Shown here piece after piece: positions 1 to 32,324 of a stretch of 64,000 bases of DNA. A model generated the notes under the pieces. That model had not been told where the DNA came from and made no database searches. It was given only the letters and a program-made list of their open reading frames with translations. Within the stretch, counting starts at the first letter, position 1; every line of letters begins with the position of its first letter. The stretch is from Bacteroidia bacterium (GTDB lineage Bacteria > Bacteroidota > Bacteroidia > AKYH767-A > OLB10). The stretch spans positions 173,155-237,154 of the forward strand of contig JBBQED010000004.1 of NCBI GenBank assembly GCA_038320345.1, written 5' to 3'. The translations under genes and the position numbers were made by a program.

Positions 1-2962
1 GATCCCTGTTACCAGTTTTTTCAGAGATGCAAAAATTTTCGCTACAATCAAAGAACAGATTCTTCCATCTTTAATACTTGAGAATAGCAGTTCATTGCCA
101 GTTAGGGTATGGATTGCAGGATGTTCCACCGGTGAAGAAGCTTATTCCTTGGCTATTTTAATACAGGATTATTTAGAAAAAATAGGATCGAAAAGAACTA
201 TACAAATTTTTGCTTCTGATTTATCATCAAATTCTATTATGCATGCACGAAGCGGCTCATATCCATCTGCACTCATTAAAAATATCTCCGAAGACCTACT
301 TAAAAAGCATTTCGTTAAATCAGGAGAACAATATCAAGTAAAAAAACACATCCGAGATATTTGTGTATTTGCCGTTCATAATTTCTTAAAAGATCCTCCC
401 TTTGCAAAGATGGATCTAATAAGTTGCAGAAACGTTTTGATCTACATGGATAATTTTCTGCAAAAAAAAGCACTAAGTACCTTTCACTATGCGCTAAATG
501 AAAGCGGATTCCTTATCCTCGGGAAATCAGAAACTACTGGAACATCTTCAGATCTTTTTCAATCAGTTGCCAAAAGCGATAAAATTTACTCAAGAAAAAA
601 AGTATCCAGTCATTATTTATATCAGGCTTATAAAAATGGGGGTTTACGATCCGGCGATTCTGAAATTAAAGAATCGAATACTCAGCATAATTATATAGAT
701 TTCCAGAAAATTGCAGAAAGCATACTATTAAAAACTTACACTCCCGCCAGTGTTGTCATTAACCAACAATATGATATCGTAAATATCAATGGAGATATTA
801 GTCCGTTTCTCAAACATAACCAAGGTAAACCAAGTTTCAACTTATTGAAAATGGCAAGGGAGGGACTCGTTTTTGACCTTCGTAATCTCCTCAATAAAAT
901 TGGGACGTCCAAAGAAACAGTATCAAAGAAAGGAATTTATATTAAAAATGAAGAAGGGCATGTAAAAATCAATATCGACATCGTACCACTTCCTGATACA
1001 ATTGAAGTTTACTACCTAGTTCTTTTTAAAAAGGAAAATTTAGTTCGGAAGATTAAAACACAGTCCTTACTAGAAAAACAGAATGTTTCAGAATACCTAC
1101 AGAGGATTAGTCAGTTGGAAAATGATATTGCAAGCTCTCACGTTGATGTTAATTTAATTGCTGAGCAACATGAAGTAGCCAACGAAGAGTTGCAGAGTGC
1201 CAATGAAGAATTACTTAGCGGTAGCGAAGAGCTTCAAAGTCTTAATGAGGAATTAGAAACATCAAAAGAGGAATTACAATCGAGTAATGAAGAATTAATC
1301 ATTGTAAATCAGGAATTAACTGATAAGCAAGTTGAAATAAATAATTTGAGACTCTACTCTGAAGCCATTATTGCAACTGTCAAGGAACCACTTGTGGTAA
1401 TGGATAAAGATCTCATCATAAAAAGTATAAATAAATCTTTTTACGATAAATTCAACATCAATGAATTAGAATCAGTTGGAAAATATATTTACGAACTACA
1501 GCACGATCTATTTAACACACCAGAACTAATAACTTTACTTGAGGGTGTTCTAGGAAGACGCAACGAAATCAAAAATTATGAAATGCAAATTCAAATTCCG
1601 AAAATTGGAAAATGTTTTATTTTAGTTAATGCACAGAAGATTAACAATATCGGTAATAAAGAAGCCTTAATTTTGCTCTCCATTGAAGATTATACAGAAC
1701 GGAAATTAATCGAAAAAGAACAACAAAAATTAGCGGATGACTTATTAAAAGTCAATACCGAAATGAATGTCCAGCAAGAAAAAATTAACTTTTCAAAACA
1801 ATATGTAGAAGCCATTATCGGAACGGTAAGAGAACCATTAGTTATACTTGATAAAGATTTAAGGATAAAAAGTATAAATAATTCGTTCATAAAAGTTTTC
1901 AATATCAACGAACTGGAATCTTCGGGACAATTATTTTACGAAGTGAAGGATAATTTATTTGATAACAATAAATTGCGATCGCTATTAGAAAAAATATTAA
2001 CCAAGCGGACTCAGATCAATGATCACGAGATTACGATTAATCAACTGGGAATTGGGGAGCGATCTTTTTTAATTAACGCAAGGCAAATAATTAACGAGGT
2101 TAAGAAAGAACAACAAATTCTACTTGCTTTAGAAGAATATTCCGATCGTAAATTACTTCAAACTCACAACCGCTTACTATTTGAAGAACTGGAATCAAAA
2201 GTAAAGGAAAGAACAGCTTCTCTTGAACAAAGTAATATTCAATTGGAACAATTCGCACATACTGCTAGCCATGAATTTCAGGAACCACTCCGGAAAATAG
2301 TTACTTTTTCCAGAATACTTCAGACAAAGTCAGAAGAGAATAAGAAAGAGGAAGTTAAAAATTATCTTGAGAAAATCGAAAAATCATCTTTACGGATGTC
2401 AGTTTTGATTCAAGATATGCTAAATTTTTCTGTTGTAAACAATCATACCAAACTAGTAGAAAGAACGGATTTGAATAAAATTTTAAAAAATATTTTATTC
2501 GACTTTGAGTTAAATATATCTGAGAAAAATGCAATAATTACGAGCGATATTTTGCCTGAGATTGATGCGATACCTTTTCAAATGAATCAACTTCTATATG
2601 ATATCATCAGTAATGCTCTCAAATTTTCAATTCCTGGAGTTCCGCCAGTAATTCGAATTTCATCCAAAAAGTTAACGTCTGATGAATTAAAAATGTATCC
2701 TCATTTAAATTTGAACATGAATTATTACCGGATAACTATTAAGGATAACGGAATAGGATTTGATCAAAAATATGCAGGACAAATCTTTACCATGTTTCAA
2801 CGGCTTGATATAAGCGGGAATTATCCAGGCACTGGCATGGGGCTAGCGTTTTGCAAAAAAATTGTGCATAATTATCATGGTGAAATATATGCTCAATCTA
2901 AAAAAAATGAAGGGACTTCAATACATGTTATTTTGCCAGGATATGCAAGCACCGAAATCTAA
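1..2962 (+). CDS. CheR-type MCP methyltransferase domain fused to a coiled-coil linker, PAS domains and a histidine kinase (HisKA + HATPase_c). The 5' end is partial: the reading frame is open to base 2, so the N-terminus (likely a CheB methylesterase domain) lies upstream of the window.
   Basis: Frame is open from base 2 and reads ...TSFFRD...LPVRVWIAGCSTGEEAYSLAIL, the CheR SAM-binding signature. A heptad-repeat segment (EELQSANEELLSGSEELQSLNEELETSKEELQSSNEEL) precedes two PAS-like modules, the H-box ASHEFQEPLRKI, and the G-boxes DNGIGFD and GTGMGL. The ORF-track start at 95 is a TTG inside the open frame. Confidence 0.85.
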   Translation, partial: IPVTSFFRDAKIFATIKEQILPSLILENSSSLPVRVWIAGCSTGEEAYSLAILIQDYLEKIGSKRTIQIFASDLSSNSIMHARSGSYPSALIKNISEDLLKKHFVKSGEQYQVKKHIRDICVFAVHNFLKDPPFAKMDLISCRNVLIYMDNFLQKKALSTFHYALNESGFLILGKSETTGTSSDLFQSVAKSDKIYSRKKVSSHYLYQAYKNGGLRSGDSEIKESNTQHNYIDFQKIAESILLKTYTPASVVINQQYDIVNINGDISPFLKHNQGKPSFNLLKMAREGLVFDLRNLLNKIGTSKETVSKKGIYIKNEEGHVKINIDIVPLPDTIEVYYLVLFKKENLVRKIKTQSLLEKQNVSEYLQRISQLENDIASSHVDVNLIAEQHEVANEELQSANEELLSGSEELQSLNEELETSKEELQSSNEELIIVNQELTDKQVEINNLRLYSEAIIATVKEPLVVMDKDLIIKSINKSFYDKFNINELESVGKYIYELQHDLFNTPELITLLEGVLGRRNEIKNYEMQIQIPKIGKCFILVNAQKINNIGNKEALILLSIEDYTERKLIEKEQQKLADDLLKVNTEMNVQQEKINFSKQYVEAIIGTVREPLVILDKDLRIKSINNSFIKVFNINELESSGQLFYEVKDNLFDNNKLRSLLEKILTKRTQINDHEITINQLGIGERSFLINARQIINEVKKEQQILLALEEYSDRKLLQTHNRLLFEELESKVKERTASLEQSNIQLEQFAHTASHEFQEPLRKIVTFSRILQTKSEENKKEEVKNYLEKIEKSSLRMSVLIQDMLNFSVVNNHTKLVERTDLNKILKNILFDFELNISEKNAIITSDILPEIDAIPFQMNQLLYDIISNALKFSIPGVPPVIRISSKKLTSDELKMYPHLNLNMNYYRITIKDNGIGFDQKYAGQIFTMFQRLDISGNYPGTGMGLAFCKKIVHNYHGEIYAQSKKNEGTSIHVILPGYASTEI

Positions 2963-3006
2963 TATGGAGCTAAAATCAGAATAAATTAAGTTATCACTGC
3001 AAAATT

Positions 3007-3570
3007 ATGAAAATCCATATCAAATATGATATAAATTTGGCTTGCAAAATAATATTGCAAGAACAATTAGAATTATTGGGCGCAGATTATCAAATTACTG
3101 GTTTGGGTGAAGTAGACATAAAAAATAATCTAAGCAAAGATCAGTATCAAAAACTCAGCACTAATCTTAAAAAATATGGTATTGACATCATTGAACATCC
3201 CAAAAGCGTTCTTATTCAGAAAATAAAAGACACAATTGTTGATCTTGTTTATCTTCAAGAAAAATTACCCAATTCAAATATTTCAACTTATTTAGCAGAA
3301 AAGCTAAATCATAGTTATGGATATTTATCTAATCTGTTTTCTGAACTAACATTTTCGTCCATAGAAAATTTTATTATCCTTCAAAAAATCGAAAGGGCTA
3401 AACAACTTATCATTGCAAATGAATTAACACTGACTGAAATCGCCTGGCAGTTAAATTATAGTAGTGTTGCACATTTGTCCAATCAATTTAAAAAAACAAC
3501 TGGTCTTACTCCTACCGCATTTCAAAGAATAATTAAAAATAGAAATGATTCTGATAGTACTGATAAATAA
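3007..3570 (+). CDS. AraC-family transcriptional regulator with a C-terminal HTH_18-type DNA-binding domain
   Basis: The C-terminal ~100 aa (ISTYLAEKLNHSYGYLSNLFSELTFSSIENFIILQKIERAKQLI...LTEIAWQLNYSSVAHLSNQFKKTTGLTPTAFQR) matches the AraC twin helix-turn-helix pattern. Confidence 0.7.
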   Translation: MKIHIKYDINLACKIILQEQLELLGADYQITGLGEVDIKNNLSKDQYQKLSTNLKKYGIDIIEHPKSVLIQKIKDTIVDLVYLQEKLPNSNISTYLAEKLNHSYGYLSNLFSELTFSSIENFIILQKIERAKQLIIANELTLTEIAWQLNYSSVAHLSNQFKKTTGLTPTAFQRIIKNRNDSDSTDK

Positions 3571-3671
3571 TTTCTTAAAAGTAGAAAATAAATTTATTTA
3601 GTTCAGTAGTTGAATAATGACCCATACAAAGGAAATTCGATAATTACCATTAACATAAAACCAATAAAGAA

Positions 3672-4118
3672 ATGAATTCGGATGCATTAAATGTTCTTTT
3701 AGCTGATGATGATGAAGATGATCGTTTGCTTTTTAAAGAAGCATTAGGAGAATTAAAAGTCAAAACCAACGTCGTCTTACTTAACGATGGAGTTCAATTA
3801 ATGAATTTCCTTAATGACCCTGCTACACTCCTTCCGGATATTGTATTTCTAGATTTAAATATGCCGAAAAAAGGGGGGATGCAATGTTTGCAAGAAATAC
3901 GATCCGACAAGAAACTAAAAGACTTATCGATAGCCATTTATTCAACCTCTGCGTCGGAAAAAGATATAGAGGAAACCTTTATAAAAGGGGCTAACGTTTA
4001 CATTAAAAAACCGAATGATTTTAGCTCACTGAAGAAAATCCTTACTGAAGTGATTAGTATGAAATGGCAATATCACACATCTGGTTTAAATAAAGAACAC
4101 TTTTTGTTAAGTCTTTAA
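3672..4118 (+). CDS. Stand-alone response regulator receiver domain (CheY-like) with no output domain
   Basis: LLADDDEDDR...DIVFLDLNMPKKGG...IYSTS...YIKKP carries the phospho-acceptor Asp, the Mg-binding acidic pair and the conserved Lys of REC domains. At 148 aa it is a single domain. Confidence 0.85.
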   Translation: MNSDALNVLLADDDEDDRLLFKEALGELKVKTNVVLLNDGVQLMNFLNDPATLLPDIVFLDLNMPKKGGMQCLQEIRSDKKLKDLSIAIYSTSASEKDIEETFIKGANVYIKKPNDFSSLKKILTEVISMKWQYHTSGLNKEHFLLSL

Positions 4119-4129
4119 AAATCACTTTC

Positions 4130-5908
4130 ATGAAATTGATTAATATTTCTCCTATCTATATCTTAGGACTTTTCATCATTTCTGTCTTTTTACTATTTTT
4201 TATTAGTAGTATATCTTATCAGCAAATAAAATCTCTTGATGAGTCCGGCAAACTAGTGGCCCGTACAAAAGATATAAATGCTGAATTAGAACATTTATAC
4301 GGACTAATTGAATTTGCGCAATCTACACAGCGTGGATACCTAACCACGAATGATTTAGCCTATCTGGATCCTTATTACTCTGTCCCTAACAAAATAGACA
4401 CTTGCATACACAATCTTCGTCTATTAATGGCCGATAATGTACATCAGCAAGCGAATTTAAATGTAATTACAGTACTTATTCATAGAAAAAATGCAAGTCT
4501 TGAAGACGAAGTAAGTGCTAAAAAAAATAACATTTCAAATGCTGAATTAGTAACTCAAATACAATTTGGTAATTTGCTCATGGATAGCATTAGAGTGAAG
4601 ATAAATGATATGAATTCACTCGAGCTAAAATCATTACAAAGTCGAGAGAAAGAACATGCTCATGACGTAAAATTAACACCTAAGTCCACGCTAGTATTAT
4701 TGTTTTTCTCACTATTTATTTTCATTTTCTCTTTTTATAAGATCAACAAAGACAGGATTAATTTAAAAAAGATTAACAATCAATTGTTGATCACAAAAGA
4801 GACATTTGAACATGCGGAACAAATTGCTGAAATCAGTAATTGGTCATGGGATATAGATAAAAACAAATTGTCGTTTTCCAACAATCAATATCGTTTACTT
4901 GGATGTCAGCCGCATGAATTTACACCAAGTGTTGAGAATTTTCTTGAATTTGTTCACCCTGATGATAGAGCTATAATTCTGGAAGGAAACAATAGGGTTC
5001 TTGCTGATGCCCAACCTTCTGTTTCCTATTTTAGAATCATCAGGAAAGATGGTAAACAAAGATATTTTAAATCACTGGGTAAATTAATCTCTGATAGTTA
5101 CGGAAAAAAAATAATGATCGGAATAAATTCCGATATCACTGATCAATATAACAAAGATAAAACGCTAGAGGAAAAAGTATTTGAACTAGAACGGTCTAAT
5201 AATGAATTATCCGCATTTAATCATGTTGCCAGTCATGATTTACAAGAACCTTTACGGAAAATACAAACATTCATATCCAGAATTGAAACCTCTGACTTAG
5301 AAAATCTTTCAGAAAGAGGTAAGGATTATTTCAAACGGATTGTATCTGCTGCTAACCGTATGCAAGTTCTTATTGATGATCTGCTTATGTTTTCCAGAAC
5401 AAATAAAGCCAATAAAGTTTTTGAAATATCGGATCTAAATGAATTGCTATCCAGTTCGAAACAAGAACTTATGCAATCTATTGATGAGAAATCAGCAAAT
5501 GTTACTTCCGACCGGCTCCCTACCATCAATGTTATTCCCTTCCAAATAAGGCAACTTTTTTTTAATATTATAGGCAACTCTCTAAAATATTCGAAAGCCG
5601 AAATAATTCCAGAAATCAATATCACGTCTAAATTAGTTTCGGGAAAAGATATTCCTGATGCAAATACGGCAAATGATAAGCCCTATTATAAAATTTCTAT
5701 CACTGACAACGGAATAGGATTTGAACCTAAATATGCAGACTCCATTTTCAACCTATTTAACAGGCTACATGAGGATAAAGAATATTCAGGAACAGGCATA
5801 GGGCTGACTATTTGCAAAAAAATTGTCGAAAATCATAAAGGTTTTATTAGAGCTCAGGGGTTCCCAGATAAAGGCTCCATTTTTGATTTTTACCTTCCTG
5901 TCGATTAA
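4130..5908 (+). CDS. Sensor histidine kinase with CHASE3-like periplasmic sensor, a TM segment, PAS, HisKA and HATPase_c
   Basis: An N-terminal TM helix is followed by a ~170-aa extracytoplasmic region (LVARTKDINAELEHLYGLIEFAQSTQRGYLTTNDLAYLDPYY, CHASE3-like), a second TM, a PAS domain, the H-box ASHDLQEPLRKIQTF (same subtype as the first kinase) and the G-boxes DNGIGFE and GTGIGL. Confidence 0.85.
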   Translation: MKLINISPIYILGLFIISVFLLFFISSISYQQIKSLDESGKLVARTKDINAELEHLYGLIEFAQSTQRGYLTTNDLAYLDPYYSVPNKIDTCIHNLRLLMADNVHQQANLNVITVLIHRKNASLEDEVSAKKNNISNAELVTQIQFGNLLMDSIRVKINDMNSLELKSLQSREKEHAHDVKLTPKSTLVLLFFSLFIFIFSFYKINKDRINLKKINNQLLITKETFEHAEQIAEISNWSWDIDKNKLSFSNNQYRLLGCQPHEFTPSVENFLEFVHPDDRAIILEGNNRVLADAQPSVSYFRIIRKDGKQRYFKSLGKLISDSYGKKIMIGINSDITDQYNKDKTLEEKVFELERSNNELSAFNHVASHDLQEPLRKIQTFISRIETSDLENLSERGKDYFKRIVSAANRMQVLIDDLLMFSRTNKANKVFEISDLNELLSSSKQELMQSIDEKSANVTSDRLPTINVIPFQIRQLFFNIIGNSLKYSKAEIIPEINITSKLVSGKDIPDANTANDKPYYKISITDNGIGFEPKYADSIFNLFNRLHEDKEYSGTGIGLTICKKIVENHKGFIRAQGFPDKGSIFDFYLPVD

Positions 5909-6120
5909 CGGAACCTCGTAGGGCCTCTACTTTTCTTGCCTTAGCCTAACTAAGGAGGGATTTCTGTATCTACTCTAAGCAAAAACTATTTAAAGTCGTT
6001 GCCCGCTTTGTTACATCATAAATATGTAATAAAATAGATAAATTTTGTAACAGCCATTAAAATCACTTAACGCAACTTTGTCTCAGAATAAATTACAATA
6101 ATATTTAACAATTTAAATCT

Positions 6121-6561
6121 ATGAAAATGAAAAAAGTAATCATGATCCTTACTTTGGCTATTACCACTAGTTTTGGTGTTGCCACAGCACAGAAAGCAGA
6201 AATAATTACAAGTGATAAAACTGGCTGGCATAAAATTGGGGAAACAACAGTTGATTTTCAAAAAGAAAGTGATGAAATTCTCGTTATGGGTGCCGATAAA
6301 TTTGCAAAAATTCAAATTAAGGTTACAGAAGCTCCCATTGATTTGATTTCTCTGGATATTTTTTATGAAAGCGGAGATAATCAAAGCGTTAAAATTAATA
6401 CTCCTGTTAAAGCACCAGGCGAAAGTCGTATCATTGATTTGAATGGTAGCGAACGGAGTTTGAAAAAAATTGTATTTGTGTATAAAACATTACCAAATAG
6501 AAAAGACGTAAAAGCCAAAGTGGAAATTTGGGGCTTGAAGACGAATACTGATATGAAGTAG
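6121..6561 (+). CDS. Hypothetical secreted protein with a signal peptide
   Basis: The N-terminus MKMKKVIMILTLAITTSFGVATAQ is a typical Sec signal. The protein composition is plausible and an intrinsic terminator follows. Confidence 0.55.
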   Translation: MKMKKVIMILTLAITTSFGVATAQKAEIITSDKTGWHKIGETTVDFQKESDEILVMGADKFAKIQIKVTEAPIDLISLDIFYESGDNQSVKINTPVKAPGESRIIDLNGSERSLKKIVFVYKTLPNRKDVKAKVEIWGLKTNTDMK

Positions 6562-6856: not shown

Positions 6857-7207
6857 ATGAATACTCCACTGCAAGAAAAAATCCAAATGAAAACCATGGT
6901 TGACTGTACGAATATGCTTGATAAATTGGGCTTTACGTCACAATTTAAAGCATTATCTAACGGTCTAAAATCTCTGAAAACAAATCAGATTTATTCATCT
7001 GCTGACATCAAGATAGTGAATTTTTATCGATTTGAAGGAGAATCTGATCCATGCGACAATTCAATTCTTTATGCGCTTGAATCTGCCAACGGAGAAAGAG
7101 GCACGTTAACTGATGCATTTGGCCCATATAGTGATACCAATGTTACGAACTTTATCCAGAGTGTAGAAGAAATTCAAAAGAAAGTAAACAAACATGAAAC
7201 ATTATAA
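6857..7207 (+). CDS. Hypothetical protein
   Basis: 116-aa ORF with normal composition and no recognisable motif. Confidence 0.4.
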   Translation: MNTPLQEKIQMKTMVDCTNMLDKLGFTSQFKALSNGLKSLKTNQIYSSADIKIVNFYRFEGESDPCDNSILYALESANGERGTLTDAFGPYSDTNVTNFIQSVEEIQKKVNKHETL

Positions 7208-8484: not shown

Positions 8485-8640
8485 ATGGGAAACTTACTAT
8501 ATGTAGTAGCAGTAATAATGATCGTAATCTGGGCGGTAGGGTTTTTTGCCTATAGTGTCGGAAGTATCATTCATATTCTACTGGTAATCGCCTTGATTTC
8601 TATACTGCTTCGTGTAATACAAGGCAGAAAGTCTATATAA
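8485..8640 (+). CDS. lmo0937-family small membrane protein (51 aa), absent from the ORF track
   Basis: ATG at 8485 reads MGNLLYVVAVIMIVIWAVGFFAYSVGSIIHILLVIALISILLRVIQGRKSI*, which matches the widely conserved lmo0937 mini-protein family (…GGIIHILLVIAIISILLRIIQGRK…). Confidence 0.7.
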   Translation: MGNLLYVVAVIMIVIWAVGFFAYSVGSIIHILLVIALISILLRVIQGRKSI

Positions 8641-25067: not shown

Positions 25068-28000
25068 TTACTGGGAAAGGGAGAAACGAAGTTCGATACC
25101 GGCATTAATATTAGAGGTAGGGTACGACGTCGAAATAACTGGAGTGTTGATGGTTTGCTCATAGAACAACCTGATATTTACCCTGTCGCTCATGGCATAA
25201 TCTGCAGCTCCTTTTATCGAGTATACATTCAATCCTGCGGTTGGTTGATTGATGCCTTCGAGCAATCTGCGGATAATCGTCACATTTTTACGAGCACTGA
25301 AATCAGCCGTTAAATTTAAACTGTTTCCTGCTGCACCTCTCGTTCCTCCTAAACCGAATGGCAGAATGAACTTTGGAATACGGTATCCAAAACCAAATGT
25401 TATTTCATTGCCTTTGGTTTCTGTGATCTGAACTCCAGCATACGTTAAAGATACGTTGCGGTCTTTCTTGAATTCAATTCGCGTTTGGATATTATTTTTC
25501 CATGTAACGTCAACACCGATCAAAGGTGCAAACTGTTCCGTAAGACTTGCCTGTGCTATTTCTTTACCCGGAATAAAATTTCCTCCCACATCTCTTACTA
25601 CAGGAGTTTCGGCTTCCACATAGTTAGGATTACGCTGATAGGAATTAATATTAAAAGTTGAACGATAACTATGACTCAAACTAACATTATTAAAGATCCT
25701 TTTGAAGAGGGGTAACTTAGATAAACCGTCATAGGTAATTCTCCAGTTAGGCATCGGCGTTTTCAAGAATGGACTATTTCCCACTTTACCTGGAGACTTT
25801 CCAGTGTATGCCGACAAGAATGCCATCGTTAAAACTTCTTGCTGTGTTCCAGAATAACCATCGTTATATACGATTCCGAAGGTATCAGGAGCATTGAATC
25901 CCGACGAGTTTGGATTCTCCGCAGCAAGTCGTTCAGAGTATATTTTCCTATTCGTATTAAAGGTTTCAAACACTGAACTGGTGTAGTTGTTCTTATCATC
26001 TTTTACAAAAGCCGTATTCCAAGAGATCACAGAAATACTAAAATTCCCTGTTTGATTTATTCCTTGTGATTCGAATTTAGTTCCATTGTAACGGAAAAAT
26101 TCCGAATTGTTTTTGGCATAAGTACGATTTGCTGTGAGCTCAATTTTTAATCCAGTCAATGGCTCAATAGAACTTCTTGCGGTGAAATTCTCTGTGTAGG
26201 TTCGAGCATATTGACTATTCAAGCTGGTATCATTTGTGATCCAATTATTGAGTACCGCTTTTTCGCGTAGATCTTTCTGACTACCGAATGCAAATCCAAG
26301 TCCCGGTGAATTCTGATCCAGATCTTGACCTAATAGTTGTGAGTAATTACGATAACCCGGAAGAATAGTACCGTTAGTAGTGCTATAGGTAAATCCTACA
26401 GTTTTTACCGACATGATGAGCTTACCAACAAACCTTACTCCATCAGGAATGCCTTTAGGAGGTTTGATTACAGGAGGCGCTGGCTTCTTACCACCGGCAG
26501 TATCGGCAGGGGTTTTTGGAAGATCAGGCTTTGGTGTTTTTGGCTTAGGCGGTGGTGGTGGTTTTGGCGAATTGATTTTCTTTAAATAAGGCACCTTATT
26601 ATAAAGGGTCGTCATCGTAAAGTTTCCGTTCAGCGATTTGGTATTTGCATTTTGAATCGTACTTCCCGTTCGAGGATCTGTTCCAAAGGCATTCGTATTT
26701 TTATTCAATAGAAATTGCCCTGCGGTCCAGTTATAGGTGAAGCCGTATTTCGCGTTGAGCGAGATCCAATCGGTAAGGGGAAATTTATTCAACGGTAACT
26801 GATAACTCACATTACCTGCCTGTTGATATTGTTTATTCCTTCCGAGGAAATAATTCTTACCCCAAATATTACTGTTTACCGAATCACGTTCTCCACCGGT
26901 GTCAATTTTTCCTTCCGGTTCATCCACTACAGAATAATTGCTTGCATTAAAATCTACTTTTATAGAGCGCGTTAAATCATATTTAAAATCATAAATTCTC
27001 CGCATCTCAAAATTCTTGTTGTAGAATGTATCACGGATAATATCAGCAAACCCTGTATTATTCCGGAAGAGCTTCTCTCCGTAAGTTCTGGTAACATCAT
27101 AACGGAAATTCAGACTTGTTGGAATGAAGTTGATATTGAGATCTTTTACCGGACGTAAATATTTTGATTTCAAAGCCGGAGCTTTGCCAAATGGAGCGAT
27201 ATATTTCGGTGTAGTATTGTAATTATAACCCAATGCTCCATGATGCGTTTTAGTTACATCATATTCGATATTGATATCGCGATGAAACGTTTCATCATAT
27301 CCGTAAGTCAGGTTGAAGTTTTCAATATCATACACTTTAGGTTTACCTCCACCTACACGATTCTTCTTCACATTTGTGAAGTTGATACTCTTGTTACGAG
27401 TATAATCCTGACTTCGTCGCTTTATCTCTTTTTTATTTGAATTGCTATACGCATTATCAAGAGCAGTATTAAATGGAACATCCTGATCCAATGGATCGTA
27501 TTGAGGATTACTTACCACCGTTCCATAATTCACATACATGGGAATATCGAGAGCTGCTTTTTCTGGCAGGAACTTACCGAGATATAAAGAAGAAGTTACG
27601 TTGAAAGAAGTTTCATCACTCCGTCGGCGTTCACTCACCTTTTGTTCAATTGCTCCAAAGCCTACCGTTTTATGGGTACCCGCCACCGTTAGATTACCAA
27701 TATCTGCAAGTTTGGTAGTCACCCTTGAAGTTGCAGCCCATCCTCCTTTCTTATCAAAATTAGTTAAGCGCAATTCGTTCACCCATACTTCTCCACATTT
27801 TGCTGCGCCATCATCTGTTCCAGGATTCAAAGGATTCTGTTTAGGATTACGGATCCCAATCATGATAGTCCGAACATTACTCAATGAAGGATTTCCCTTG
27901 ATGGTAATTTTATTCAAACCTTCCGCTTCAGAATAGGAATTGGTGATGTTTAATGTACCTCCAGATAATCGTACAGCATCATTTCTTGAGAGCTTGAGAT

Positions 28001-31000
28001 TAACGAATTTATCAAGATCGAGCTCCAGCAAATTTTGTTCTGGCCAGATAATTTCCGGATCAGTAGTTCCCCATGGAGTTACTTTCAGCGGAATTTCGTA
28101 TTCGTAATAGTTTTCTGTAAAATCATTTCCTACCCTTACAAAAGCAGTGAGATCTCCGTCTTTCAATGCATCTTCCACTTCAGAAGCTTCAGCATGCACA
28201 AACATTTTTAATTTTTTATACGAACGCAAATCCAGTTGCAATGTTTTGAATGCACCACGCGCATCTCCATCTTCCAAATTACAAACGCTCAATGATAAAC
28301 TCTGCTCATTAATTTGTTGAAGATTGGTTGACCCTACATTTATTTCACGATCGATACCAGGAGGAATTACATAAGGGATAGGAGAACGATTTCCGTTTTC
28401 TTCAAGACTCACCGCAGAAACATCAAACGTGGTATTCGTACTTCCGCAACCCAAACATTCACCTGGAGTAAAGAGATCATAAGCATACTTCCTCCACTCA
28501 CCACGCAGGAACTCCAGCTTTGCAAAACGCAAAACCATAGGTTCCTGATAACCCGTCATGAACATCCTGATAAAACTGATCGTATTAAATCCTTCAATAT
28601 CTCCAAACTTTCTAATATTTGGATTAGTACCTTCTATATCACGAATTGGAATTTTAAACTGATACCATGTCACATCTTTTGTTGTACCATTCGCTAATTT
28701 CCATCCTACACGAGTAATTTTATCAACGATAAAGTTCTTGCCGATTTCCATTTGTGATGGATCGATATCCACTTGATATTCATAAAACTGCTCACTTGCC
28801 TCCTGATTAAAATCTTTGTTTACATCTTCAGCATCCGGTAATGTTGTAGATGCTGTTGAATAAGATTCTGGAGATTGTCCATCAGTAGGTGAGTTACCAT
28901 CTGGCTGACTGAAATTTTTATATCGATTGAGAATACTTACTTGTTGAGCATCATAATCAGAACCACGGTAGTAGTGATAGTTATCAGAAGAAGGATCAGC
29001 TTCGTACTGAGCATAAGCAGAAGGAGAAATATTCGCACTCAAATTGTTCAAGTATCCTGAATAAAAAGAGGCTTCATTACTATTTTTTAATCCATCTAAT
29101 CCTACATCTTGATACTGTCTTGCATTAGCATTATTATCGAAAGCATAAATAATTGGGGGTTGATTTTTTGGAACATAACCCCAAACGGTATTAGTAGAAA
29201 GAGTAGTATCTCCATCTGCAGGTAATCCATTTTCATATTCCAGTTTACCATCTTTCAAGATATCCTCTGAAATATTTCCCAGATCAAAATATAATTTACC
29301 ACCTGATGTTCCCGGATCCAACTTATCACTGTTAAAAGGATCCATTAACCAGAACTGAATGAATTCAATATTTGCGGCATCAAAATCTGTGGTTTCCACA
29401 CGACGCATAATACCACCCCAACGAGAGGCTGGACTATTTAAAAATCCATCCGCAGCAACTCCAGCCGAAATCCCGCCAATAGGTTGAACATCGAAGTTGT
29501 ACGGTCCGCGCTCTCTTGGATAATATGAAATATTGAACATCGGCAGAATTACTTTCTGTCCATTCAATCCTTGCTTATTCGGGAAAATTTCGTCTTCTGT
29601 AATTTGCCGCACTAACTCATTTGAGATATCATTAGTAGTGATATGACTCGGACGAATTCCTGACGATCCATTATAAAACAAAGGATCAATTCTGTACCAA
29701 GAAAGTTTAGAACGATTAAATCCATTCGCAAGTGTTGAACTATCTGCACCAGGAATCTGACTTGTAGGTGCTGAAGCTAAGGTCCATGATCCTACGTTGG
29801 TAAGATCAATTGTAGATTGGCTTCCTTCAAAATCGTCGATATATGCTGTACCTGCGCGACCAATTGCTTTGCTATTTCCCGGAATCAAACGTGCGTATTC
29901 ACCACTCACTGTAATATTCGAAGGTTCCTTCGTAGAAATGCCCGGGAGTTTATCTATGGCTCTTGTTAACCATCGTGAATCAGTTCTCCATGTTCCATCT
30001 ACACCTACCATCGTATTAGCAATTGGTTCATCACCAACATTCACTTTAGAAGTGATCGGTCGTTCATTCAAACGAAGTACTGTTCCTCCCAGCACCAGAT
30101 CTTTATTCACCACATAATCAAAGCGACTTCCTAAAAGTGTTTTCGATTGAATACTAAACAACGAATTACTTTCGAGCGCGATATTGATCGCAGTTCCTGA
30201 ATTCAAGATACTCTGATTGATAATTTTTACGCGACCCAGATTATAATCAACAGTATAATCTACATTCTCAACCAGAGGAGCACCACCTGCAGTTACTTTC
30301 ACAGATCCTTCAGGAATATTGATTGCATTCAGTGGAATATCAGACCCAAATTTGCTGATGTAACTTCCCTTCAAACTGAATTTATTTTTCTCAGGTTGTT
30401 GCAATGCAACGGTCTTTGTAGAATCGTACAAAACTTCATACACAAACTGATCGGCTTTCGCTTGATCAATAAATTGACTTCGCAAATAACTTCCAAAAGG
30501 CTCACGCACCGGGAAAATAATTCTACCATTGGAGCTATTGATCGTTACGCCTTCAATGAAATCATATTCACCATCCGGACGAGGATCATTATTTTGATTC
30601 AATTTATCCAAATTATAAACTCTATTCAGTGGCTTCGTATAGAGATTAGTTTCTGAAGATAAAAGTGGAAGGTAGTTTAAACGGTTACCGATGGTATCTA
30701 CGTAGTACATAACATCCAAACGAAAATCCTTTTTATCAATTTGAAAACCACCTAAAGCATAGATGTTTTTCATCATCAGATCCCAGGTAGGTAATTTGGT
30801 ATTCGTAATACGACCTTTCAGCATCTTTAGATAAAGCACGCTCGTAGGGTCGATACCTGAAGTGGTTAAGTCACCGACTTTATATACTTTATTGCCGATA
30901 GTATACTCGAATGCAACACCTAATACTTCGTTATTATTCAGCGCTTGATTGAGGGAGATATAACCTAAGCGAGGATTAAAAGTGTACTCAGTTGGGGCCA

Positions 31001-32324
31001 ATTTTCTTGCATTCTGCACTACATCATAATCACGGGAAGAGGAAAAATTATTCTGCTGAGAAAGAATATTCTGTACCTGATTAATATCCCGAGTTCCTGT
31101 GATTGCAGAGATCTGATTATACAAACTATTGGTTGAATCTGTTGGATAAGTGGAGCCGTATGGCGCTCCAGTAGAAATTCCAAAATTCTGGTTGAAATAA
31201 TTTGTTTCTGCAAGATCAAGGAGAGCAAGAACAGTACGTGTATTATCTGTACTATTATTTTTATTCGTCACCCATACTTCGAGACGTGTAATGTTAACTT
31301 GAGAATTTATAAAAGGCAGATCACTTAAAGCATTATCATAATTATCCTTGAAATAATTCGCAAGGAAATAGTGTTTGTTACCTTCATATTGATCTGCAGA
31401 AATATCAAATGTAGTCGTAGTAGCACCACTCTTCACTTCGATATTGGAAGCTTTACCTTTTTGTTGAGATAATAAAGTGGTAACGGTAAGCTTTCCGAAT
31501 TTCAATTGTGTTTTTATCCCGAACAAACTCTGACTTCCTTGTATCAGTGTCGTATTCAGTGGCAGACTAACATTTCCAGCTTCAATTTTTTGAATGATTT
31601 CATCTTCATAGCCGGTATATTCCAGTTTAATCTGATTTTCGAAATCGAAACTCGCTTCTGTATTATAGTTTGTACTGATCTTTAATTTCTCTCCGATATT
31701 CCCAATAACATTCATTTGGATCTTCTCTTGAAAATCGAAGGTTGTATTTTTCCGTTGACGTTCAGGAAGTGTAGGATTATCGTATTTGCTGATGTTTAAA
31801 CCGAAGCTTAGCGATGCAGAACCTTGCGGGCGAATATCTATGGTGTTACCTCCAAAAATTCTGTTGAAGCCTTCTCCACCAACATACAGTTTAGGTGCAA
31901 ATGCATTTTTTCTCGCAACGATATTATCTTCGTTTGCCTTTTGTTTCCAGTAATTATTTGTGCTCTTATTAAATTCTGATTCTTTGAATTCTTCGAAGGT
32001 CATATAACTTGGAGCACGAAAAAACTGATTCCCAATTTTTTCATTCACATCATACTGCCGATCTTCTGGATTATATTCTATGGTAGTTTGAACATTGGAA
32101 GGATCATGCATATAAAGCGGATTATCGCTTTGTCGGGAGTTATATGGATCTGCATTCCGGTCATCAAATGGGTAATGAAGTTCAGGAGGAGGAGTGTCAA
32201 TAACCAGCGCTTGAAGTGGAATATCAAAATCCGGAATAACAAAATCAGCACCTGAAGCCCAAACCAGAGAGATCAGCGAGAATATACCAAAGGCAAGAAG
32301 GGTATATGGTCGTAAATTTTTCAA
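25068..32324 (-). CDS. sprA: SprA, the type IX secretion system translocon / gliding-motility surface protein (2418 aa)
   Basis: The size is right, it has an N-terminal signal peptide (MKNLRPYTLLAFGIFSLISLVWA), long beta-rich Asn/Gly/Tyr-rich composition and a C-terminal beta-barrel-like end (…RLFYEQTINTPVISTSYPTSNINAGIELRFSLSQ). It sits in the conserved gcvH-sprA-ruvA neighbourhood. Confidence 0.9.
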   Translation of the reverse strand: MKNLRPYTLLAFGIFSLISLVWASGADFVIPDFDIPLQALVIDTPPPELHYPFDDRNADPYNSRQSDNPLYMHDPSNVQTTIEYNPEDRQYDVNEKIGNQFFRAPSYMTFEEFKESEFNKSTNNYWKQKANEDNIVARKNAFAPKLYVGGEGFNRIFGGNTIDIRPQGSASLSFGLNISKYDNPTLPERQRKNTTFDFQEKIQMNVIGNIGEKLKISTNYNTEASFDFENQIKLEYTGYEDEIIQKIEAGNVSLPLNTTLIQGSQSLFGIKTQLKFGKLTVTTLLSQQKGKASNIEVKSGATTTTFDISADQYEGNKHYFLANYFKDNYDNALSDLPFINSQVNITRLEVWVTNKNNSTDNTRTVLALLDLAETNYFNQNFGISTGAPYGSTYPTDSTNSLYNQISAITGTRDINQVQNILSQQNNFSSSRDYDVVQNARKLAPTEYTFNPRLGYISLNQALNNNEVLGVAFEYTIGNKVYKVGDLTTSGIDPTSVLYLKMLKGRITNTKLPTWDLMMKNIYALGGFQIDKKDFRLDVMYYVDTIGNRLNYLPLLSSETNLYTKPLNRVYNLDKLNQNNDPRPDGEYDFIEGVTINSSNGRIIFPVREPFGSYLRSQFIDQAKADQFVYEVLYDSTKTVALQQPEKNKFSLKGSYISKFGSDIPLNAINIPEGSVKVTAGGAPLVENVDYTVDYNLGRVKIINQSILNSGTAINIALESNSLFSIQSKTLLGSRFDYVVNKDLVLGGTVLRLNERPITSKVNVGDEPIANTMVGVDGTWRTDSRWLTRAIDKLPGISTKEPSNITVSGEYARLIPGNSKAIGRAGTAYIDDFEGSQSTIDLTNVGSWTLASAPTSQIPGADSSTLANGFNRSKLSWYRIDPLFYNGSSGIRPSHITTNDISNELVRQITEDEIFPNKQGLNGQKVILPMFNISYYPRERGPYNFDVQPIGGISAGVAADGFLNSPASRWGGIMRRVETTDFDAANIEFIQFWLMDPFNSDKLDPGTSGGKLYFDLGNISEDILKDGKLEYENGLPADGDTTLSTNTVWGYVPKNQPPIIYAFDNNANARQYQDVGLDGLKNSNEASFYSGYLNNLSANISPSAYAQYEADPSSDNYHYYRGSDYDAQQVSILNRYKNFSQPDGNSPTDGQSPESYSTASTTLPDAEDVNKDFNQEASEQFYEYQVDIDPSQMEIGKNFIVDKITRVGWKLANGTTKDVTWYQFKIPIRDIEGTNPNIRKFGDIEGFNTISFIRMFMTGYQEPMVLRFAKLEFLRGEWRKYAYDLFTPGECLGCGSTNTTFDVSAVSLEENGNRSPIPYVIPPGIDREINVGSTNLQQINEQSLSLSVCNLEDGDARGAFKTLQLDLRSYKKLKMFVHAEASEVEDALKDGDLTAFVRVGNDFTENYYEYEIPLKVTPWGTTDPEIIWPEQNLLELDLDKFVNLKLSRNDAVRLSGGTLNITNSYSEAEGLNKITIKGNPSLSNVRTIMIGIRNPKQNPLNPGTDDGAAKCGEVWVNELRLTNFDKKGGWAATSRVTTKLADIGNLTVAGTHKTVGFGAIEQKVSERRRSDETSFNVTSSLYLGKFLPEKAALDIPMYVNYGTVVSNPQYDPLDQDVPFNTALDNAYSNSNKKEIKRRSQDYTRNKSINFTNVKKNRVGGGKPKVYDIENFNLTYGYDETFHRDINIEYDVTKTHHGALGYNYNTTPKYIAPFGKAPALKSKYLRPVKDLNINFIPTSLNFRYDVTRTYGEKLFRNNTGFADIIRDTFYNKNFEMRRIYDFKYDLTRSIKVDFNASNYSVVDEPEGKIDTGGERDSVNSNIWGKNYFLGRNKQYQQAGNVSYQLPLNKFPLTDWISLNAKYGFTYNWTAGQFLLNKNTNAFGTDPRTGSTIQNANTKSLNGNFTMTTLYNKVPYLKKINSPKPPPPPKPKTPKPDLPKTPADTAGGKKPAPPVIKPPKGIPDGVRFVGKLIMSVKTVGFTYSTTNGTILPGYRNYSQLLGQDLDQNSPGLGFAFGSQKDLREKAVLNNWITNDTSLNSQYARTYTENFTARSSIEPLTGLKIELTANRTYAKNNSEFFRYNGTKFESQGINQTGNFSISVISWNTAFVKDDKNNYTSSVFETFNTNRKIYSERLAAENPNSSGFNAPDTFGIVYNDGYSGTQQEVLTMAFLSAYTGKSPGKVGNSPFLKTPMPNWRITYDGLSKLPLFKRIFNNVSLSHSYRSTFNINSYQRNPNYVEAETPVVRDVGGNFIPGKEIAQASLTEQFAPLIGVDVTWKNNIQTRIEFKKDRNVSLTYAGVQITETKGNEITFGFGYRIPKFILPFGLGGTRGAAGNSLNLTADFSARKNVTIIRRLLEGINQPTAGLNVYSIKGAADYAMSDRVNIRLFYEQTINTPVISTSYPTSNINAGIELRFSLSQ

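Follow-up and report, generated by a model that had tools for sequence, protein, structure and literature searches.

CheB/CheR fusion histidine kinases and their conserved glutamate-rich helix: a candidate case of methylation outside chemoreceptors

What do the enzymes CheB and CheR do at loci without chemoreceptors, and is glutamate reversibly methylated outside chemosensory arrays? Both questions are raised by the protein family of a gene at the left edge of a 64,000-nucleotide stretch of DNA from a Bacteroidia bacterium (positions 173,155 to 237,154 of the forward strand of contig JBBQED010000004.1, assembly GCA_038320345.1; the whole stretch is hereafter the window). The gene, referred to as ORF1 (open reading frame 1), encodes a sensor histidine kinase that is soluble and belongs to the widespread 'CheB/CheR fusion' family, in which CheB, CheR, PAS domains and a kinase are joined in one polypeptide with a long helix carrying repeated pairs of glutamates. 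This helix is inseparable from the two enzymes, its Glu pairs are more conserved than its hydrophobic core, the catalytic residues of the enzymes are invariant, and no gene for an MCP (methyl-accepting chemotaxis protein) or for CheW lies nearby. Taken together, these comparative observations make self-methylation of the heptad stalk by CheB and CheR the best-supported reading, to which we give about an even chance of being correct.

The window holds only part of the gene. Reading frame 2 has no stop between base 2 and the one that ends it at 2962, its left end being open at the window edge, and a homolog search returned a 1264-residue protein (P0001) that is 100% identical across the entire window ORF1 and of which the window encodes the last 986 residues. 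The missing DNA is present on a 6.7-kb contig (L081) from a second assembly of the source organism, a Bacteroidota bin of a soil metagenome, which was reached by look-up of an AraC protein encoded further downstream; this contig matches the window at 99.9% identity, with its position 2082 corresponding to the first position of the window, and the gene occupies its positions 1249-5043, starting 832 bases before the window. A preliminary description of this DNA, made from the letters of the window, had read a CheR domain at the beginning of ORF1, followed by PAS modules and a kinase core, all of which were recovered by Pfam. It had also guessed that CheB lies upstream, and P0001 indeed bears CheB_methylest (PF01339) at 20-193 (E 1.5e-51) and CheR_N (PF03705) at 217-267. 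The upstream frame thus runs into a CheB domain and the CheR region carries its catalytic residues, whereas the description had allowed for a frame closing without CheB and a CheR without such residues. CheB of P0001 consists of the catalytic domain without a receiver domain, so that canonical control by phosphorylation is not available to it. The parts of ORF1 that lie in the window are the following.

Positions 1 to 2962, plus strand: the 3' 2961 bases of a CheB-CheR-PAS-helix-PAS-PAS-HisKA-HATPase gene (open frame; 100% match to P0001).
Positions 8 to 574, plus strand: CheR S-adenosylmethionine (SAM)-dependent methyltransferase domain (Pfam PF01739, residues 3-191, E 3e-54).
Positions 698 to 1036, plus strand: alpha/beta domain of PAS-like type that separates CheR from the helix (AlphaFold2 model of the homolog P0002, residues 511-623; phmmer).
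Positions 1091 to 1378, plus strand: predicted continuous helix of about 96 residues that runs from the PAS-like domain to the next PAS domain and bears the heptads (AlphaFold2 helix 642-737 in P0002).
Positions 1178 to 1303, plus strand: six xNEELxS heptads with one Glu-Glu pair each, candidate methyl-accepting sites (direct reading).
Positions 1391 to 2122, plus strand: two PAS domains (Pfam PAS_9 at residues 464-566, below cut-off, and PAS at residues 602-707).
Positions 2243 to 2938, plus strand: transmitter composed of HisKA (residues 748-810) and HATPase_c (residues 860-979), both from Pfam.

How unusual is such a protein? ORF1 is matched by more than 8000 proteins, and the best 120 matches are all of the CheB-CheR-PAS-kinase type, about 1100-1500 residues long and mostly from Bacteroidota; several sources name the matches 'two-component system CheB/CheR fusion protein'. 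The family as a whole numbers thousands of proteins, spread over more than 10 phyla. We regard the family identity and domain anatomy of ORF1 as a CheB/CheR fusion kinase as practically certain: ORF1 belongs to a known, database-named family, and there is nothing exceptional about this copy. No functional, experimental or comparative study of the family or of the heptad motif was found in a literature search that left subscription journals mostly uncovered, and earlier work may exist.

The comparison was extended to the family. A scan of a genome collection with one genome per species gave at least 587 loci, of which 80 were kept, the source genome not being among them. These 80 loci span Bacteroidota, Cyanobacteria, Acidobacteriota, Gemmatimonadota, Planctomycetota, Verrucomicrobiota, Myxococcota and Chloroflexota, together with several classes of Proteobacteria and a Methanoperedens archaeon. 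Wherever the contig reaches, the ORFs with CheB and CheR (hereafter CheBR) run in one order, from CheB through CheR and the PAS-like domain to the heptad helix, and most departures from this order fall on short contigs or contig ends. The PAS-like domain, which has no Pfam match in the ORF1 protein, is kept in all 80 loci according to phmmer. What follows this core varies: HisKA with different H-boxes, HisKA_2/HWE, HisKA_3 or fused receivers, and some members end after the core with only one or two PAS domains. The constant part is thus made up of the enzyme pair, the PAS-like domain and the helix, an input module that serves different outputs. Some loci hold more than one copy, as tandem duplicated units of CheBR kinase and receiver (L014:5550-13962) or as two CheBR genes in one locus (L030:2867-16400).

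Is the helix found anywhere apart from the enzymes? The helix alone, a 97-residue query, was compared by phmmer with 1.84 billion representatives, which gave 9293 matches at E<=1e-3, 1020 of them with E<=1e-10. The best 148 were classified: CheR lies upstream of the helix in 73, and nearly all of the remainder start inside the PAS-like domain or the helix, for instance with the Met that lies within 'KMAREGL...' or 'REDMRSITEDQEA...', and are truncated gene calls. Short 'PAS-heptad-PAS' proteins of 200-380 residues, which came up in this search and in a subsequent one for homologs, looked like independent substrates, but the three such ORFs checked on long contigs (3/3) are each immediately preceded on their own strand by short ORFs bearing CheB only (L083) or both CheB and CheR (L084, L085), which points to one gene broken by frameshifts. 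The idea of stand-alone substrates was thus rejected, the three cases being frameshifted CheB-CheR-PAS genes. JGI/KEGG-style annotation still labels the pieces on these ENA contigs as CheB/CheR fusion, a trap for domain-architecture censuses. Within what could be tested, the helix never stands apart from CheB/CheR.

The six heptads of ORF1 read, in order, ANEELQS, ANEELLS, GSEELQS, LNEELET, SKEELQS and SNEELII, and are flanked on both sides by degenerate heptads. The preliminary description had listed these heptads correctly but counted a five-fold array, and it attributed them to imperfect 21-bp DNA repeats, a view that does not hold: the six 21-base units average 11.9/21 identical bases (about 56%), and Tandem Repeats Finder, run on positions 1-6500, reports no array where the heptads lie. 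A repeat of DNA was given up as an explanation on these grounds; the periodicity is that of an ancient protein-level repeat. The heptads are found in 120/120 of the best homologs.

Which positions of the repeat are under constraint was asked of 64 CheBR proteins from the 80 loci, using only the four heptads free of the anchoring pattern and a register assigned by eye (a, Leu; d, small residue; e, Asn; f and g, Glu pair). Mean entropy is lowest at the second Glu (0.40 bit), ahead of the first Glu (0.88 bit), the Asn (0.94 bit) and the core Leu (0.98 bit), while the b position reaches 2.25 bits. As a control, the coiled coil that precedes the H-box in these proteins was measured too; there the hydrophobic positions alone are conserved, the mean for this helix is about 2.1 bits, and surface positions stand at about 2 bits. 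That the surface glutamates exceed the hydrophobic core in conservation argues for recognition by something and does not fit a passive linker.

Both enzymes appear equipped to act. CheB residues S25/H52/D143 align to S164/H190/D286 of Salmonella CheB (1a2o), and the CheR motifs FFRD, GCSTGEE and CRNVLIYMD align to FFRE, AASTGEE and CRNVMIYFD of S. typhimurium CheR (1bc5); the CheR domain was also aligned to 5xly, and the basic CheR_N helix RRRIMRR aligns to 1bc5. Across two alignments, one of 25 homologs and one of 96, CheB S25, H52 and D143, CheR FFRD (R286), GCSTGEE and CRNVLIYMD (Y426), and R242, R243, R246 and R247 of the CheR_N basic helix are invariant or nearly so. We take the aligned residues to be those of catalysis and receptor recognition; in enteric CheR, the CheR_N basic helix recognises acidic receptor helices. 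It could be argued that CheB and CheR are relics of a lost chemotaxis system without present function, a parallel being the che genes of non-flagellated Chlorobi, for which relic status has been proposed (PMC3362086). This is most improbable, given that the residues for catalysis and SAM binding do not vary from phylum to phylum and that the architecture is upheld in thousands of proteins.

Structure prediction gives a consistent picture for the 1120-residue homolog P0002, modelled as a monomer by AlphaFold2 with a mean confidence (pLDDT) of 78 and a low global score (pTM 0.34). In Foldseek, the model superposes on CheR 5ftw (TM 0.89), on the CheB catalytic domain 3sft (TM 0.87) and on the bacteriophytochrome kinase domain 8f71. 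The heptads are placed within one continuous 96-residue helix (642-737, pLDDT 68-88) that has low-confidence linkers on its flanks; linkers of low confidence (pLDDT <50) are found at 202-210, 479-508 and 625-648 and look tether-like in the model.

Self-methylation would then proceed as follows. CheB and CheR, tethered to the kinase by flexible linkers, would reversibly methyl-esterify the Glu pairs of the coiled-coil stalk within the same dimer, CheR adding the methyl groups and CheB removing them, and the covalent fusion would take the role that the pentapeptide tether plays in enteric receptors (PMC7390727). Methylation would shift the charge, packing and stability of the helix that couples the PAS sensors to the kinase, and the outcome would be a built-in, MCP-like adaptation, gain setting or memory at a locus where no chemoreceptor genes were seen. 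The kinase would then phosphorylate a small Rcp-like receiver, the best candidate being a 148-residue receiver encoded 71 bp upstream. The broader view of the CheB/CheR fusion kinases as 'methyl-accepting histidine kinases' complete in themselves is put forward tentatively, as falling a little short of an even chance. If true, methylation-based sensory adaptation would extend from MCPs to ordinary histidine kinases, and the retention of CheB and CheR by thousands of non-chemotactic bacteria and by some archaea would be accounted for. The idea concerns thousands of proteins and not this locus alone, and the comparative evidence makes it directly testable.

Do CheB and CheR have a substrate elsewhere? 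Canonical CheR and CheB work on separate proteins, and the enzymes of the fusion may likewise act in trans on a separate methyl-accepting protein, the helix being a conserved transmission or dimerisation coiled coil and the kinase serving to sense or scaffold. That some family members carry no kinase output would fit such a role, as would the extra CheB-domain genes beside some loci, which show that esterase can come in trans. Such genes adjoin CheBR fusion genes at L017:8344-9348, L031:14583-15614 and L069:1638-2765; their products consist of an N-terminal CheB catalytic domain followed by about 150 residues without a Pfam match and have no receiver domain, and these loci can thus recruit more esterase without any MCP. 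A search for the expected partners used the E. coli Tsr cytoplasmic domain and CheW as phmmer probes, validated by Pfam (MCPsignal 3.8e-63, CheW 3.3e-38). It found 0 ORFs with MCPsignal or CheW in the 64-kb window and the 80 loci, a result that refers to flanking DNA and not to whole genomes, CheA having had no separate probe. The only element that always accompanies the enzymes is the PAS-like domain with the helix, and the conservation of its surface Glu pairs above the hydrophobic core is more than a plain linker needs. We consider a substrate in trans unlikely on this evidence.

It remains to ask how closely the heptads resemble known methylation sites. Their Glu pairs recur every 7 residues and are followed by small residues, and 5/6 heptads read E-E-x-x-[S/T]-[A/G/S/L], a relaxed match to the methylation consensus (PMC1079850); the Tsr methylation sites 297, 304 and 311 are spaced seven residues apart as well (PMC1079850). 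The likeness to receptor methylation sites, as far as sequence can tell, seems real but loose. The preliminary description had likened the heptads to MCP sites and advanced self-methylation as a hypothesis: the Glu-pair likeness survives in this loose form, without sequence homology to MCPs, and self-methylation itself gains support from the comparison through co-occurrence, Glu conservation, intact catalytic residues and the lack of nearby MCP and CheW genes.

Several observations nonetheless speak against self-methylation. The strict E. coli consensus is unmatched, the +3 position being Ser/Thr, with Ala in 0/6 heptads. The helix shows no homology to MCPs: at E<=10, Pfam gives generic coiled-coil families only, and the MCP signalling domain PF00015 has no match in ORF1/P0001 even at this threshold (the PAS-like domain and helix, compared with solved structures, likewise gave nothing significant). 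AlphaFold2 predicts a single continuous helix, not the antiparallel MCP hairpin, so that the geometry of the substrate would differ from the known one. The absence of MCPs holds for flanking DNA only, and MCPs may be encoded elsewhere. Finally, Glu-to-Gln substitutions, which are common at MCP sites, are almost absent in the heptads, and the strong surface conservation could reflect a binding interface. The last two points would be expected if the Glu/Asn-rich face of the helix were a docking surface for other domains of the same protein (CheR, CheB or PAS) or for a partner such as the receiver, with any methylation taking place elsewhere or on a small molecule. Invariant Asn and Glu at the flanking e and g positions of the by-eye register would also fit helix-helix or helix-domain contacts. 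Six equivalent repeated sites, however, look more like substrate sites than like one interface, and mere docking would call neither for two intact active sites nor for an invariant CheR_N basic helix. A docking surface thus seems improbable to us, about as much so as a substrate in trans, and self-methylation is retained as the working model.

To which receiver does the kinase pass its signal? Downstream of ORF1, the preliminary description had placed an AraC regulator, a bare receiver and a CHASE3-PAS kinase, all of which were found by Pfam and are given here with the gene that follows them.

Positions 3007 to 3570, plus strand: small AraC-type regulator of 187 residues, with an N-terminal alpha/beta domain of about 60 residues and an AraC DNA-binding domain (Pfam, AraC-type helix-turn-helix).
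Positions 3672 to 4118, plus strand: receiver-only response regulator of 148 residues, of the phytochrome-partner (Rcp-like) type (Pfam Response_reg).
Positions 4130 to 5908, plus strand: membrane CHASE3-PAS_3-HisKA-HATPase kinase of 592 residues (Pfam), starting 11 bases after the end of the receiver gene.
Positions 6121 to 6561, plus strand: DUF2541-like secreted protein, a possible target gene (61% identical to L090 5071-5502; PF10807).

The four-gene cluster of the preliminary description stands as four same-strand genes in the window, yet it is cut by the window edge. On the contig of the second assembly (L081), two further genes precede ORF1 on the same strand: L081:52-633 encodes a 193-residue receiver protein with an N-terminal extension, and L081:731-1177 encodes a 148-residue receiver-only protein and ends 71 bases before the start of the CheBR kinase. 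With these two receiver genes, the cluster comprises at least six genes, one receiver being hidden by the window edge. A scan for sigma-70 promoters and terminators, which does not cover Bacteroidota promoters, performed no better than on shuffled sequences.

The two kinases of the window carry similar H-boxes, ASHEFQEPLRKI at 2267 in ORF1 (His codon 2270-2272) and ASHDLQEPLRKI at 5231 in the CHASE3 kinase (His codon 5234-5236), the only two H-boxes in the 64-kb window, and their cores are 44% identical. Both strings are present as the preliminary description had stated, but they are not unusual: SHDLQEPLRK is the family consensus, no other H-box is as frequent among the CheBR kinases of the 80 loci, and the same type occurs in 5/27 H-boxes of other ORFs of these loci not classed as CheBR. 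It is a common phytochrome-type (Cph1/BphP-like) H-box. Indeed, the solved structures nearest to the ORF1 transmitter are the RpBphP2 kinase domain 8f71 (E 7e-39) and the Deinococcus bacteriophytochrome DrBphP, the best solved matches of the window receiver include RcpA, Rcp1 and RcpB, and the features of phytochrome-type kinases and receivers are present, namely an H-box of the form SH[DE]xxEP[LV]R, a Cph1/BphP-like core and a single-domain receiver encoded next to the kinase. Complete CheBR kinases that have this core number 36, and for 20 of them a receiver-only gene is no more than 600 bp away. The H-box being a hallmark of the subfamily, it does not single out a common phosphorelay partner, and the argument from a rare H-box to a shared receiver lacks support; the receiver at 3672-4118 belongs, moreover, with the AraC gene.

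This last point rests on the distribution of the small AraC regulator, whose conservation is unusually high, upwards of 100 proteins matching it over the full length at 60-74% identity. Within about 15-25 bases of the AraC gene, Flavobacterium chromosomes and those of other Bacteroidota have a gene for a 148-residue receiver, which always comes after AraC, irrespective of the presence of a CheBR kinase. The receivers that follow AraC at L086, L089 and L090 are 64-73% identical orthologs of the window receiver, and the orthologous receivers keep the C-terminal tail WQYHTSGLNKE[NH]FLLSL. No CheBR kinase lies near the AraC-receiver pair in those genomes, one case having a PAS kinase between. Synteny extends downstream of the AraC module, to the DUF2541-like gene listed above and to a 116-residue ORF at 6857-7207 and a 51-residue ORF at 8485-8640, and the neighbours in relatives include YtxH, DUF4142/DUF305, DUF2383, Usp, superoxide dismutase and ferritin genes. 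The AraC regulator and its 148-residue receiver thus look like a conserved, stress-type Bacteroidota module that is independent of the CheBR kinase (L086-L090), and the pair probably controls the neighbouring stress-type genes. Since it stands without an adjacent kinase in some genomes, its input must there come from distant kinases.

The hidden upstream receiver has relatives of another kind. Receivers that adjoin CheBR kinases at L001, L002, L004, L005 and L017 are 42-55% identical to it and only 31-36% identical to the window receiver, with two Flavobacterium loci ambiguous. The parsimonious arrangement, to judge by these identities, would be two juxtaposed units, the first made of a 148-residue receiver and the CheBR kinase, the second of AraC, a 148-residue receiver and the CHASE3 kinase, followed by stress-type genes. 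For the receiver at 3672-4118, the neighbouring CHASE3 kinase is the likelier partner, ahead of the CheBR kinase. The opposing possibility, in which both kinases converge on this receiver as a shared phosphorelay partner, draws on their common type of dimerisation and histidine-phosphotransfer (DHp) domain with the core identity given above, on the residues after the phospho-accepting His, which are mostly identical by direct reading, and on the Flavobacterium pairs, which take their input from kinases elsewhere. We hold it to be doubtful, though less so than the alternatives to self-methylation weighed above, as the H-box is common to the whole subfamily, a second 148-residue receiver is encoded 71 bp upstream of the CheBR kinase and has relatives that adjoin CheBR kinases, and the gene at 3672-4118 ends 11 bases before the start of the CHASE3 kinase. 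Under the arrangement in two units, cross-phosphorylation between them may occur, the DHp helices being alike. The analysis thus amends the wiring of the cluster and reveals a strongly conserved Bacteroidota AraC-receiver module with stress-type neighbours. Elsewhere in the window, the list of ORFs includes one of 2418 residues at 25068-32324 on the minus strand.

How does ORF1 compare with known systems? CheR fusions are found in alternative chemosensory pathways as well, among them FrzF of Myxococcus and CheR-TPR, in which CheR is fused to an extra domain that controls the methylated sites (PMC3447774, PMC2535941). Those enzymes, however, act on a separate MCP, FrzCD, in a CheA/CheW pathway, of which neither MCP nor CheW was found near ORF1.

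The classical adaptation system of MCPs with CheR and CheB shares with ORF1 the two enzymes and the Glu pairs spaced 7 apart on a long helix, with small residues after them. The tether is a C-terminal pentapeptide in enteric receptors (PMC7390727) and a covalent fusion in ORF1. Unlike MCPs, ORF1 has no MCP signalling domain and a single predicted helix in place of an antiparallel four-helix hairpin; its CheB lacks the regulatory receiver, its output is a classical HisKA kinase, and its methylation is only proposed. It also departs from the canonical MCP-CheW-CheA-CheY pathway in that the window and the 80 loci hold no ORF for an MCP or CheW.

On the output side, the closest parallels are Cph1 and the bacteriophytochrome kinases with their Rcp1/RcpA receivers, which are like ORF1 in transmitter core, type of H-box and adjacent receiver gene. 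Unlike phytochromes, the two kinases of the window have no photosensory module, their inputs being CheBR-PAS in ORF1 and CHASE3-PAS in the kinase at 4130-5908 (ORF4).

The nearest relatives remain the proteins known as 'two-component system CheB/CheR fusion protein' (KEGG K13924-type; 'CheR family methyltransferase' or 'chemotaxis protein CheB' in NCBI names), which have the same domain order and heptad helix as ORF1. ORF1 is 45-57% identical to named members from Flavobacterium, Dyadobacter, Chryseolinea and others. It differs from them in having two PAS domains after the helix (1264 versus about 1120 residues) and in adjoining a unit of AraC, receiver and CHASE3 kinase; in everything essential, it is one of them.

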